Source: a virus
Lineage: Duplodnaviria > Heunggongvirae > Uroviricota > Caudoviricetes
Virus record (IMG/VR): IMGVR_UViG_2537562215_000014
Reading direction: 5' to 3' (one strand)
DNA length: 17,179 bases
Shown here: piece after piece, positions 11,001 to 15,523 of the stretch
Layout of the letters: every line of letters starts with the position of its first letter
Numbering within the stretch: the first letter of the stretch is position 1
Translations under genes and position numbers: made by a program
The notes under the pieces: generated by a model
The model's input: the letters and a program-made list of their open reading frames with translations, nothing else
Databases searched by the model: none
Told to the model about the DNA's origin: nothing

Positions 11001-11372
11001 TCAGAACGACCAGTTCACACCAGCTACCCCGTTCCACGGGGATTCCACACCGGCACCATGGCTATACCCCACCCCAAGATGCCCGCTTAACGTACTGCTG
11101 AATGAGGCTTTAATACCTGCCTGGTATATTCCACGTCTGCCCGACAAATCATTGACGAAATTACCGTCACTATTCACTTTCACCCGGTTATCATCGACAA
11201 ATTCTTTGCGCACAGCCGCCTTCAGCCACGGCTCAACTTCCATACCGTTCCCCAGACGCATGTTGTAACTCAGCGTTGCACCCAGTTCACGATATAAACT
11301 GCGGGTATCGACTGATTTCGATTCCATGCCATTGGATAAATGATATTCAGGGTTATCAGCGATGAACCCCCG
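11001..11372 (-). pseudogene. autotransporter beta-barrel C-terminal segment, out of frame with the passenger segment (ends ...GVNWSF)
   Basis: C-terminal aromatic-x-Phe motif NWSF typical of type Va autotransporters. This frame is open back to the stop at 11373..11375; it is shifted relative to the 626-aa ORF at a C5 run (11367..11371). Confidence 0.75.
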
Positions 11373-13294
11373 TTAACGATGCATACGGCGTCAGGTTCCA
11401 GTTACCATCGGTAAATCGCATCCCGGTTTCAATGTGACCGCCCAGCCCGTTGCTGCGATAACTGCCGTTGGCGGCTCCACCGCTGCCAACCGTGGAGTCG
11501 CGAGCTTCGGTACCTGCTAATACCAATAAATTACCGCCATTTTCCAGCAACATATTGGTCGCTAAATTGCCGGAAATGGAAAAAGTGCCGTACTGGTGAG
11601 TACCGCTGATTTCAATACCGTTAGCCGTGCTCGTCTGGAGAGCGGCACCGCTGTTCTGGACGATATCTGTCGCTTTGCCATTATCGTTAACTGTCAGCGT
11701 ACCGCCTTCATTGATCTTTGTTTTTATTGCCTCTCCGTTAGCTGAAACTGTTTGTATTCCGCCGTCGTTAATCGTTGTCTCATTCGCCACCCCCTCGACG
11801 ATTTGTTCGCCGCCGGTGAGCGTCGTGCCTGTCGCAGTGGCTTTTGTTTTGACGATCTCCCGTCCGCCCGTATTGACCTGTGTTTTGTCAGAAGAGGTGT
11901 CTGACTCCATGGTTAACACGCCGCCATTTGCCAGCAGGATATTGTTCGCCGCACCCTGCTCGATGCTGAACGCGACGCCATCCGCGCGTGTTCCTGTGAC
12001 CCGCGTCGCCCTGGTGGTTGCAACCAAAGCGTCCTGGCTACTCTGCTGTATCCCCGTTGCGCTGCCTTTCTCCCGCACATCGAGTGTGCCGCCGTCATTA
12101 AGCACCGAGTTTTCAGCCAGACCGCCCTCATTAACTACCTGTGAACACCCATTAATAATGGAACCTTCCGCTGTCCCGTTTGCCATAATTTGTTGTAGGC
12201 CAGAGACGATATCGGTATTGATTGCCTTACCATAATTCTGAACGGTTTGCGTGCCACCATTGATGTGTGTTTTCTCTGTTGACCCACCATCAACAATTTG
12301 TTCACCACTTTCGATATTTGCCTCAGTGGCTAATCCATATACCGTTTGCTTGCCACCTTTGATATTTGCTTTATCAGAAGTGGCACTGGCATATATTGTT
12401 TGGGTGCCAGCACTATTGAGTACAGTGCCAACATCTTTTCCATAAACATCCATTTTGCCGTTGGCATTAATAATCGTATCAACTGCCCGGGAACCAGTGA
12501 CGACTGTTAATGAGCCAGCGTTTTCCAGCACTACATTTTTAGCTTCTGAATTCCTGATGTAGAAAGCATCACCATAACTGTTGGTTCCTTCGATAAGGGT
12601 TCCGGAAGTTGTGGAAGCAATTAATGCGCCGCCGGATTGTTGCTCAACATGCTTAGCCTCACCACCGTCCTGAACCTCCAGAACGCCACCATTATTAAGT
12701 CTGGTGGTATCTGTTTTAGCCTCCTTCTGGACAATCAGCTTACCGCCAGCATCAACGGTAGTATTTTTCGCCGAGGTTTTAGCCACTACCGTCAGTTCGC
12801 CGGTATTTTCCAGCACAACATAATTAGCCTCCCCTCCGGTAATAGTGAAGTGAGAGAGCTTGTTGTATCCTTCAATATCAGTCCCTGCGCCCGTGTTGGC
12901 AACTAAAGCACTGCCCGTCTCCTGGTTAACCCCATGTGCAATACCACCGGTATAGACAATCAGCGAGCCTCCGGCGCTAATATTGCTGCCAGTTGCCGTA
13001 CCATCTTTCTCAACAACCTGCCGGCTCCCGGAGGATATAATTGTCGTGTCAGCTTTCCCGCCGCTCTTGATATTTTGCGTTCCGCCGTTGATATTGGTAC
13101 CCGTGGCAATACCATGATTATTAATATTCTGTGTACCACCATTGATTATGGTATTGGTCGCGTTTCCGGTAACATCCATTACCCCGCCGTTATCTATTCG
13201 GGTCGCATCAGCTTTAGCATTCGTTAAAACTGACATTGTTCCTTTATCTTTAATAATCGTCTTGTTTGCCGAACCATATGCGTTTATGTCTAAA
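11356..13294 (-). pseudogene. AIDA-type autotransporter adhesin, passenger segment distal to the IS insertion
   Basis: 626-aa ORF rich in ~19-aa Gly/Thr/Asn passenger repeats (TTINGG, GGTQ, NVVLENAG). The reading frame continues seamlessly across the IS insertion point. Confidence 0.8.
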
Positions 13295-13302
13295 TGTAGT
13301 GG

Positions 13303-14220
13303 TCAAGTAATATTGGCCACGGTTTTACAGTAAAAATGGTATCTGTTCTCTGACTCTTCCGGCGTCAGCCCACCGTTATAATGGTGAGGTCTGACGCTGT
13401 TGTAGTAGTTCAATATGTAATCATTAATTTGCTGCCGGGCCTCGTCCTTGCCTGCGTAACCATTCGTTGGCACCCATTCTGTTTTCAGACTGCGGAAGAA
13501 GCGTTCCATGGGGCTGTTATCCCAGCAGTTTCCCCGCCGACTGACGCTTTAATTTATTCTGCAACGCCAGAGAAGTTGTTGATATTTAAGGCCTGTATAC
13601 TGGCTTCCCTGGTCGCTATGGAACACGACATCCCGGGGTTGGCCACGCGTCTCATAGGCCATCCGCAGGGCACTGCTTATCAGTGCGGTATCGGCATGCG
13701 CTGACAGACTCCAGCCGATAACCCTGCGGGCAAAAAGATCCATAACAACCGCCAGATAGCACCAGCGATTTCCTGCCCAGAGATACGTAATATCTCCACA
13801 CCATACCCGGTCTGGCTCCGGTACTGCGAACTGACGCTCAAGCAGATTCGGCAGGCTGGTATGCTCCTGACGGGCATTTTTATACTGATGTTTTCCGGGC
13901 TGACAACTGCTCAGGTTCAGATATTTCATCAGACGTCCGGCACGGTAACGGCTCATCGGGACGCCGTTTTGAGTCAGCATTTCAGCCAGAGTGCGCGCGC
14001 CCGCAGAGCCCCGACTTTGGTTCCACGCCCGGCGTATTTCGCTGCACAACCTGACTCGTGCCGGATTAACCGTATCGCGTCGTTTTCGCCAGTACCGGTA
14101 ACTGCTGCGGTGTATTTCCAGAGCAGAACACAGGCTGACAACCGTGTGGCTGTCACTTAGTCTGGCGGCTATCGTGAACCGTTCAGCGAGTCGGACATTA
14201 AGAGCGCGGTAGCCTTTTTT
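13303..14220 (-). pseudogene. IS3-family transposase orfB (DDE integrase domain) with an in-frame nonsense codon
   Basis: In the -1 frame relative to orfA, entered via the A_AAA_AAG site (plus 14214..14220). Contains HSDQGSQYT, then TAA at 13549..13551 immediately before the conserved [15 protein letters not shown]. Confidence 0.75.
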
Positions 14221-14480
14221 AATATCGTATTTTGTTCCTCCAGACGGCGAACTTGCTTTTCCAGCTCGCGGATACGTTGCTGGTCTGGAGTAATGGGTGT
14301 GGCAGAGGGCGTAATACCCTGGCGCTCTCGCCTGAGCTGGCGTACCCAGCTCTCAAGCGTGGTTGAACCGACATTCATCGCTTCACTGGCCTGTCGATAT
14401 GAGTAGCCCTTATCAACAATCAGCTGTGCACATTCCAGCCTGAACTCAGGGGTGAAGGTTCGTTTGGTTTTCTTGTTCAT
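14169..14480 (-). CDS. IS3-family transposase OrfA (HTH and leucine zipper), IS911-like
   Basis: [27 protein letters not shown]...[17 protein letters not shown] closely resembles my recollection of IS911 OrfA. AGGTGA RBS 5 nt upstream of ATG 14480; the track ORF starts further upstream. Confidence 0.85.
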
Positions 14481-14552
14481 TAAGTCACCTGTTTTGTGTT
14501 GTGGTGAGAATATCACCTTTCATCAGGTGGCCAAATTTAGTGTGCCACTACA

Positions 14553-15523
14553 AAATGACCACCGTTTTCCAGCAACACATTGTCTGCCACGTGATTGTGG
14601 ATGGAGAATGCACCTTCACTATTCGTACCGCTCACCGTCGTACCGTTAGTGTTTGTTTTTAAAATTGCACCATCGTGCTGGGTAACATTTGTTGCCGTAC
14701 CACCACTAACATCAAGCACGCCACCGGAATAAACTTCAATAACATCCGAGGAGCTGGTGTAATCAACAATTTGCGTACCACCAGAATAGATCTGAGTATT
14801 TTTTGCCGTTGACTTATTATTCAGAGACTGAGTTCCACCTTCAATCGTCGTGTCCAGCGCATGGCTTTCATATACTCTTTGCTCACCGCCATTTTTAATG
14901 GTGGTTGTTCCTACTGTGCTCTGTTCAACATACTGTCGTCCACCATTTATGATTGTGTTCGTTGCAATACTTCCTTGCGTGATGTCCTGATAACCGGACT
15001 TATTTATCGTTGTACCATCAACATGCCCCTGAGTTGTTACTGTCTGCCCTCCACCATCAATGATGGTTCCATTCGCAGTCCCCCCACTTATGTGTGAATT
15101 ACCACCCTTAATTGTCGTTCCATTGCTGATACCACCTGTATAAACGTCCTGATTGCCACTGTCGATTATCGTACCGGTGGAAATGCCCCCGTCATGAATT
15201 GTCTGTCTTCCTCCGTTAATGGTTGTATTATTAGCCTGCCCCACAAAATTGTTATGACTTCCTACATCTTGATATCCCCCCGATTCAATAAGACTTCCAT
15301 TAGATCCCCCGCCATGAACATTCTGCTGGCCATGGTTGATAATATGAGTGTTATTTGTTGTACCTCGTTCATCTACTCTTTGGCTGCCATCTACAGTCTC
15401 ATCGTTTACCACACCAATAACATCAGGAGTGAAGGCCGTCATCCCAGGCGGGGCATATATCAAGGCAGATATCAATAAGGAAAGTACTGAGCGGCGACAA
15501 TAATAGGGACTGGTCCTGTTCAT
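14553..15523 (-). pseudogene. AIDA-type autotransporter adhesin, N-terminal segment (signal peptide plus passenger start) truncated by the IS insertion
   Basis: Likely start ATG 15523 (MNRTSPYYCRRSVLSLLISALIYAPP, an autotransporter-type signal peptide) with AGAGGA upstream. Passenger repeats follow. The ORF runs 5 codons into the IS and stops. Confidence 0.8.

Follow-up and report, generated by a model that had tools for sequence, protein, structure and literature searches.

The window analysed here, a stretch of 17,179 nucleotides, contains a 1258-bp IS3-family insertion sequence (IS) within the E. coli autotransporter gene ypjA/ehaD, and this is very probably a late and private insertion into an already dead gene, most likely with no change in phenotype. 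The gene carries a 1320-nt in-frame deletion and an additional G that are shared with relatives empty at the insertion site, and the proposed order of events is that both lesions would have arisen first, with the IS entering the existing pseudogene later. As the deletion junction occurs in 323 of 5426 complete E. coli genomes (~6%) and the IS insertion in none of them, the insertion appears to be late and private, and because its target was already a pseudogene, it is most likely phenotype-neutral. The features of the locus are listed in Table 1.

Table 1. Features of the ypjA locus and of the inserted element, with positions in the window
Feature	Position	Strand	Remarks
Right attachment site (P4-like island), formed by a copy of the 3' end of ssrA	10819..10841	+	Alignment with an island-free strain picks up again within ssrA
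108-aa ORF, C-terminal remnant of the beta-barrel, out of frame	11001..11327	-	Pfam Autotransporter profile 164-254 of 255; separate small RefSeq CDS in relatives
Middle fragment of ypjA: passenger repeats, then 42 in-frame residues (39 beta-barrel + 3 past the frameshift)	11356..13294	-	
C5 run (G5 on the coding strand), older +1 frameshift	11367..11371		C4 in full-length alleles
Junction of the older 1320-nt in-frame deletion	11474..11486		At short imperfect repeat GCA(A/G)(G/C)GGTGG
Target-site duplication AAA, copy 1	13292..13294		Single AAA in empty-site SW070917
Terminal inverted repeat distal to orfA (right end)	13295..13320		TGTAGTGGTCAAGTAATATTGGCCAC on plus strand
IS3-family insertion sequence, 1258 bp	13295..14552	-	Transposase genes co-oriented with ypjA; one base off the common E. 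coli copy encoding WP_085968792.1
IS orfB frame (rve/DDE integrase core), broken by a premature stop	13303..14220	-	
Private nonsense codon TAA, OrfAB Q311*	13549..13551	-	C>T at position 1002 of the IS; A for G at 13551 on the plus strand
IS orfA, 103 aa, helix-turn-helix (HTH_Tnp_1), intact	14169..14480	-	
Slippery heptamer A AAA AAG, predicted -1 programmed frameshift to OrfAB	14214..14220	-	RefSeq "programmed frameshift" on the copy one base different
Terminal inverted repeat adjoining orfA (left end in transposase orientation)	14527..14552		TGTAGTGGCACACTAAATTTGGCCAC on minus strand
Target-site duplication AAA, copy 2	14553..14555		Single AAA in empty-site SW070917
5' fragment of ypjA/ehaD: start codon (MNRTSPYY...), predicted signal peptide, first 323 passenger codons	14553..15523	-	95.9% nucleotide identity to K-12; Ag43/AIDA-I-type repeats
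Remnant of the pinH invertase pseudogene	15862..16101	-	96.7% over all 240 nt of K-12 pinH

The ypjA locus and its empty site

The gene split by the IS aligns with K-12 ypjA (b2647) at 95.9% nucleotide identity over nt 1-2789 and at 97.5% over nt 4097-4581, and the two flanks of the element, which both align to ypjA, belong to one gene. Beyond the pinH remnant lies ypjB (DUF5508, 550 bits), and on the opposite side a P4-like island, integrated at ssrA, occupies positions 1-10818. No tRNA or tmRNA was detected in the window by ARAGORN; ssrA is located just beyond its left end, as seen in S1-INA-02-B. The ssrA side is conserved in relatives, and the high identity together with the flanking genes identifies the orthologue of K-12 ypjA, so that the likeness to the K-12 ypjA-pinH arrangement, which the first-pass annotation had pointed out while leaving orthology unconfirmed, is real. 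The K-12 locus has the same N-terminus, AIDA repeats, and neighbours (the pinH remnant, ypjB/ypjC, and ileY, with the ssrA island on the opposite side), although at ssrA the window has a P4-like satellite where K-12 has CP4-57. The window allele differs from K-12 ypjA by the loss of residues 927-1366, a +1 frameshift in the barrel, and the interruption by the IS. K-12 ypjA/EHEC ehaD belongs to group 4 of the AIDA-I/Ag43-like autotransporters (type Va) and has been linked to the formation of biofilms (PMC9289746, PMC12547504).

The passenger matched the AIDA profile (PF16168) with 461 bits in nine stretches, and TIGR04415 repeats were found in both fragments, identifying it as AIDA-type and beta-helical. 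The N-terminus MNRTSPYYCRRSVLSLLISALIYAPPGMTA differs at one residue from that of K-12 YpjA and resembles a signal peptide. The initial reading of an AIDA-type autotransporter split by an IS is borne out by the AIDA score and by that of the transposase, as the OrfAB of the reference copy of the element scored 360.6 bits against the NCBIfam IS3 transposase model NF033516 (cut-off 160).

Deletion of positions 13295-14555 and translation of the minus strand from 15523 gave ...LLENGGH joined directly to LDINAYGSANK..., with no stop at the junction. The IS-excised segment 10900-15700 is colinear with SW070917, which carries the empty site GCGTTTATGTCTAAATGACCACCG; the two have the same length (3540 nt), with seven substitutions and no indels. 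Removal of the IS and one AAA copy therefore joins the frame, as had been predicted. A seamless frame is expected for any IS3-family insertion into an ORF after removal of the IS and one copy of the 3-bp duplication, which is nothing special, and the join is uninformative as to whether the whole gene was intact. The restored frame is open only to residue 968 and ends at 11356, not at 11001, because of the older +1 frameshift at 11367-11371. In its present form, the 5' fragment reads five codons into the IS and reaches a stop at 14537-14539, giving a product of 328 residues by translation, and a 626-aa ORF opens with an internal ATG at 13236.

Older lesions and the age of the insertion

The deletion corresponds to nt 2777-4096 of K-12 ypjA (residues 927-1366) and takes away Pertactin and the linker together with ~100 residues at the start of the beta-barrel. 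In K-12 YpjA, Pfam places Pertactin at residues 1057-1179 and Autotransporter at 1265-1504. A Pfam search of the window allele did not detect Pertactin (PF03212), which falls inside the deletion. Moreover, a complete in-frame beta-barrel translocator was not found in the window allele, where 39 barrel residues are still fused to the passenger and the surviving profile positions 164-254 of 255 are in another frame. Without Pertactin and a complete in-frame barrel, the locus is a type Va pseudogene and not a working member of the family.

The same deletion junction is present in L001 and L002 and absent from L003, L006, and L007. Both the deletion and the G5 frameshift occur in FREC5 and SW070917, which are empty at the window site, and neither occurs in full-length alleles. 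The allele with the 1320-nt deletion (Delta1320; e.g., SW070917, S21, H14, and FREC5) is 99.8% identical to that of the window and has the same deletion junction and G5 frameshift, but no IS at 13294/13295. PGAP calls the empty-site allele a pseudogene, and the loss of the translocator suggests that the deleted allele would be non-functional.

These lesions bear on whether it was the IS that inactivated a hitherto intact and functional adhesin gene, as the first-pass annotation implied by describing the passenger domain as previously intact. The passenger repeats on either side do join in frame with no further lesion for 968 codons, yet the allele already lacked residues 927-1366 (Pertactin and the N-terminal third of the barrel) and already carried the frameshift, both of which are found in empty-site relatives. 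With the deletion spread over 323 genomes and the pseudogene call on the empty-site allele, inactivation by the IS is highly improbable, and the description of the target as intact does not stand.

The suggestion that the insertion was recent fared better. A 300-nt query across the IS/ypjA junction found no place covered at ≥80% in the 5426 complete E. coli genomes, and exact-match scans for the junction gave no match in species-representative genomes or JGI metagenomes.

The insertion sequence and its transposase

The boundaries given for the element in the first-pass annotation proved exact to the base, with 26-nt inverted repeats at the ends and AAA on both flanks. The inverted repeats are imperfect, with 77% complementarity (TGTAGTGGTCAAGTAATATTGGCCAC / GTGGCCAAATTTAGTGTGCCACTACA). 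The ends have the form TG...CA (TGTAGTGG...CCACTACA), and both these and the length of 1258 bp are those of the IS3 family (about 1.2-1.5 kb, 5'-TG...CA-3'). The family duplicates 3-4 bp of the target, which is AAA here and GTG at an independent insertion in FREC5. The orfA and orfB genes lie in the 0 and -1 frames with an A6G-type motif, as in other IS3-family elements, and their conceptual fusion in the reference copy would give an OrfAB of 392 aa. This reference OrfAB also matched Pfam rve (94.5 bits) and has the DDE transposase of the family, whereas the window copy is cut off at Q311, short of the last residue (E) of the triad.

Over 900 IS copies in complete E. coli genomes match the window IS at 99.9% identity, which is therefore no chance resemblance; copies at ≥99% identity were found in 938 E. 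coli records, in up to 17 places per genome. The element encoding WP_085968792.1, which RefSeq names only "IS3 family transposase", is identical at 1257 of 1258 nt and has the same ends and frameshift site, and the sole difference is the CAA>TAA change that gives Q311* in the window copy only.

The element had initially been described as IS911-like. The resemblance holds at the level of the IS3 family, as IS911 (represented by the K-12 IS911A remnant) has similar terminal repeats (TGAAGTGG...TTTGGCCACCTGA in IS911A and TGTAGTGG...TTTGGCCACCTGA in the window), a similar organisation of OrfA and OrfAB, an A6G slippery site, and a 3-bp duplication. However, the window IS is not IS911 itself: the two are 52% identical in protein (229 residues) and 67% identical in nucleotides (first ~380 nt), as compared with IS911A, of which only a 764-nt remnant is available in K-12. 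By ISfinder convention, copies of the same element share about ≥90% nucleotide or ≥95% amino acid identity. The window IS is thus a distant relative of IS911.

The insertion is best explained by transposition of the 1258-bp element into the repeat region of E. coli ypjA/ehaD. A -1 frameshift at A AAA AAG would yield the OrfAB transposase, and a copy-out/paste-in pathway through a circular intermediate, as expected from knowledge of the family, would leave the TG...CA ends and the AAA duplication. The sequence itself shows how the ends are built, as well as the slippery site and the duplication.

Judging by the DDE residues assigned by motif, Q311* would fall after the second D of the triad and before its E, and should inactivate the transposase of the window copy. 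A 61-mer with the Q311* base had no exact match in the 884 E. coli records holding that IS segment, and exact-match scans with a 36-mer containing the nonsense base gave no match in species-representative genomes or JGI metagenomes. Bases 13551 and 11362 are private to the window sequence. The IS copy may have gained Q311* after insertion or may already have carried it on arrival; the former would be favoured because IS3-family transposases are known to prefer to act in cis.

Other insertions of the element and functional consequences

The same IS (99.9%) is inserted in the same ypjA pseudogene in FREC5, with the GTG duplication, but at a site 441 nt from the start of the gene that corresponds to window positions 15092-15094, and with the IS in reverse orientation. 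This insertion is independent of that in the window. FREC5 was one of three records in which the matched span was as long as the query (4801 bases) and contained an IS, and it was rejected as a second carrier of the window insertion on account of its site and orientation. E7-1N7, the first-listed match (100% coverage, 94.5%), was also rejected, as its ypjA is full-length and the IS variant found there, 91.7% identical, adjoins the gene and is not inside it. In FORC_069, the same IS is in ypjA and the remainder of the gene is lost; the IS copy in NCCP15648 has neighbouring features that match those of FORC_069. The geometry of the matches in MARGA_3 and S1-CAM-02-A suggests the same IS elsewhere in the pseudogene.

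The FREC5 copy, inserted elsewhere in the same gene in a complete genome, also speaks against an assembly artefact, in which a multicopy IS was misplaced inside ypjA during repeat resolution. The absence of the junction from every other genome and metagenome searched and the many copies of the IS per genome in many strains would fit such an error. However, the insert stops exactly at the IS termini, and the 3 bp perfectly duplicated on its flanks occur only once at the empty site; such a pattern marks true transposition and would be unexpected from misassembly, and an artefact is accordingly very doubtful.

Whether the ypjA pseudogene is a preferred landing site for this IS, and does not merely tolerate it, is a separate matter, and such a preference seems unlikely. 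In its favour, the same IS has entered the pseudogene independently two or more times within a stretch of about 3.3 kb. IS911 is described as preferring targets that resemble its own ends, and the flank of the window insertion (AAA/TGACCAC) shares a 7-mer with the terminal repeat of the IS itself (...CTTGACCACTACA). If true, a preferred site would extend the IS911-type preference for end-like sequence to a distant relative.

A functional role for the insertion, through secretion of the 328-residue N-terminal YpjA fragment or an outward promoter of the IS driving the downstream fragment, has very little probability: the 5' fragment does retain a start codon and a signal-peptide-like N-terminus, and the 626-aa ORF is available downstream, but neither fragment would be able to reach the surface without a translocator, the empty-site allele would already have made the same N-terminus without a barrel so that nothing would be gained, and K-12 ypjA is itself cryptic, with a phenotype only under forced expression.

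The late insertion into a dead gene is therefore regarded as an ordinary polymorphism of a single strain that is unlikely to affect function. A known IS in a known and already inactivated adhesin gene is not expected to change adhesion or biofilm formation, and neither the window allele nor the Delta1320 allele would be predicted to yield a surface-displayed protein. Tools that score ypjA/ehaD as "present" by sequence match would miscount the window allele and the ~6% of genomes with Delta1320. Both the IS junction and the Q311* base, being private, are handy strain-specific markers.

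Insertion Site and Its Uninterrupted Counterpart

The interruption of the minus-strand autotransporter gene by an IS element is real and was precisely described in the first-pass annotation. In the ORF listing, a block of transposase-like ORFs is located between the first two of the three ypjA ORFs. In silico excision of 13295-14555, with translation started at the ATG at 15523, gave the product previously written, with a base-exact join and no stop at the joint. A megablast search of window 10900-15700 against 5426 complete Escherichia coli genomes identified many strains in which the two flanks match at 99.8% and the matched span is 1261 bases shorter, equal to the IS plus one AAA. 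The excised segment and its counterpart in SW070917, an E. coli strain with an empty site, are each 3540 nt and differ by 7 substitutions and 0 indels. SW070917 contains GCGTTTATGTCTAAATGACCACCG, with AAA present only once, and this empty site is direct proof of insertion with a 3-bp target duplication. The seamless frame is an automatic outcome of such geometry and carries no extra meaning. The event is of a known kind and involves known elements, and its mechanism is unsurprising.

The resemblance to the K-12 ypjA-pinH arrangement, noted earlier without confirmation of orthology, proved correct. The rejoined gene is 95.9% identical to K-12 ypjA (b2647, 4581 nt) over nt 1-2789 and 97.5% over nt 4097-4581, with the pinH match and ypjB as neighbors and an island at ssrA. 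The rejoined product matches AIDA-type repeats (Pfam PF16168, 461 bits), and each fragment alone has TIGR04415 and Ag43/AIDA-I-like matches. YpjA/EhaD, a previously described protein, belongs to the group 4 autotransporters and is tied to biofilm formation (PMC9289746; PMC12547504).

Features of the window
Feature	Coordinates	Strand	Remarks
Integrase	1-1224		Satellite gene; starts the window
ORF	1268-2371		367 aa; PADLOC candidate defence family PDC-S02, E 2.7e-18
psu	3519-4091	minus	
ogr/delta gene	4165-4665	minus	
ORF without Pfam match	4662-5414	minus	Occupies P4 sid position
Alpha-type primase-helicase	8001-10334		
ssrA 3'-end copy	10819-10841		23 nt
ypjA pieces	14537-15652, 11356-13236, 11001-11327	minus	Three collinear ORFs
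Barrel C-terminal remnant	11001-11327	minus	Last 108 codons, out of frame; profile positions 164-254 of 255
Deletion junction	11474-11486		Short imperfect repeat
AAA flanking copies	13292-13294 and 14553-14555		Both sides of IS
IS	13295-14552	minus	26-nt imperfect inverted repeats, 77% complementary; TG...CA ends
A AAA AAG heptamer	14220-14214	minus	After orfA
IS orfA	14480-14169	minus	103 aa
pinH pseudogene match	15862-16101		96.7% across all 240 nt of K-12 pinH
ypjB	16436-17179		ORF running off the window end; DUF5508 match

Identity of the Element and a Private Stop Codon

The insert belongs to the IS3 family, as every defining feature tested was found. More than 900 records hold copies 99.9% identical to its 1258 bases, including one in E2863 whose product is RefSeq WP_085968792.1, for which a programmed frameshift is annotated. 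The OrfAB of the reference copy, a conceptual -1 fusion of 392 aa, scores 360.6 bits on the NCBIfam IS3-family transposase model (cut-off 160) and contains Pfam HTH_Tnp_1 and rve domains. The likeness to IS911 proposed at first reading holds at the family level, with terminal repeats visibly akin to those of the K-12 IS911A remnant. The element is not IS911 itself; it shares with that remnant 67% nucleotide identity across the first ~380 nt and 52% protein identity across 229 residues. Approximately 1500 records carry copies in the 90-95% identity class, which means that the element falls into two or more diverged lineages within E. coli. A 91.7%-identical variant with an annotated internal stop occurs in strain E7-1N7 (locus L003, 3001-4258), beside a full-length ypjA, where it cuts into psu of that strain's P4-like island.

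The sole base unlike the E2863 copy is at plus-strand 13551 (IS position 1002, C>T) and changes OrfAB codon 311 from CAA to TAA (Q311*), between the second D (290) and the E (326) of the catalytic triad, both assigned by motif. A 61-mer with the variant base had no exact match in 884 E. coli records holding the IS segment, and the variant had no exact match in species-representative genomes or JGI metagenomes; Q311* is private to this copy. As read from the sequence, the copy would encode a truncated, presumably inactive transposase. IS3-family transposases prefer to act in cis, as established for IS911, and from this preference we infer that Q311* followed the insertion. Either the transposase was inactivated by a very recent mutation, or the base was miscalled.

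State of ypjA Before the Insertion and Order of Events

The IS had been thought to land in a previously intact passenger domain, but the gene as a whole was not intact, as a deletion and a frameshift predate the IS and are present in empty-site strains. Compared to K-12 ypjA, 1320 nt are absent in frame (nt 2777-4096, residues 927-1366). By Pfam match, K-12 YpjA carries Pertactin at 1057-1179 and its Autotransporter beta-domain at 1265-1504, and the allele thus lacks Pertactin, the proline-rich linker, and roughly the first 100 residues of the barrel. Downstream of the deletion, one G has been gained in a G4 run (now G5; C5 at window 11367-11371), so that the rejoined product stops at residue 968 (stop at 11356-11358). 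Type Va export requires the passenger to be joined in frame to a complete barrel; since the barrel here is incomplete and out of frame, the allele was already dead before the IS arrived, and the insertion was most likely neutral. Both lesions occur in SW070917 and FREC5, each empty at the window's site, and neither occurs in the full-length alleles of K-12, E7-1N7, and S1-INA-02-B. The deletion junction was found in 323 of the 5426 genomes, and PGAP splits the empty-site allele into a pseudogene and a small, orphaned barrel CDS. At 11362, within the dead barrel remnant and five bases from the frameshift run, the window has a private A where SW070917 has G (GATGAAC, against GGTGAAC in deletion-allele and full-length relatives).

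The IS/ypjA junction sequence was found in none of the 5426 complete genomes and neither of the two contig collections, in support of the earlier suggestion of a recent insertion. Both older lesions are widespread. Parsimony places them first and the IS later; the IS would have inserted much later than both, probably in the recent ancestry of the window's strain.

The same pseudogene has been hit more than once. FREC5 (locus L001, 8935-10192) carries a 99.9%-identical element at the equivalent of window 15092-15094, 441 nt from the start codon, with a GTG duplication and in the opposite orientation, and this insertion is independent of that in the window. Two more genomes share the match geometry of FREC5 in the megablast search of 10900-15700. 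In FORC_069 (locus L005, 6001-7258), the IS adjoins the same 441-nt 5' fragment of ypjA and the remainder of the gene is gone; a truncated GTPase-family gene lies beyond the IS on the side where ypjA is missing. The repeated insertions fit a neutral target. IS911 prefers target sequences resembling its own ends, and a weak alternative is a preference of the present element for ypjA, given the target flank AAA/TGACCAC (14553-14562), in which the 7-mer TGACCAC repeats part of the element's own terminal repeat (13295-13307; ...CTTGACCACTACA). The shared 7-mer could reflect such end-like preference or chance, and we consider a preferred target improbable beside a neutral one.

Satellite Prophage at ssrA

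A P4-like satellite prophage, inserted at ssrA, makes up the left 10.8 kb of the window, and homology to an island-free strain restarts at 10819, inside the ssrA 3' end. The island of S1-INA-02-B, located directly after ssrA, is 99.8% identical over window 1-11486, although ypjA in that strain is full-length and differently frameshifted. Two ORFs sit between the integrase and psu (window 1268-3029), an interval that we take to be an anti-phage defence hotspot of P4-like elements. The second (2358-3029, 223 aa) had no convincing match. The first had no Pfam match and, in addition to its PADLOC hit, weakly matches a type II restriction enzyme model.
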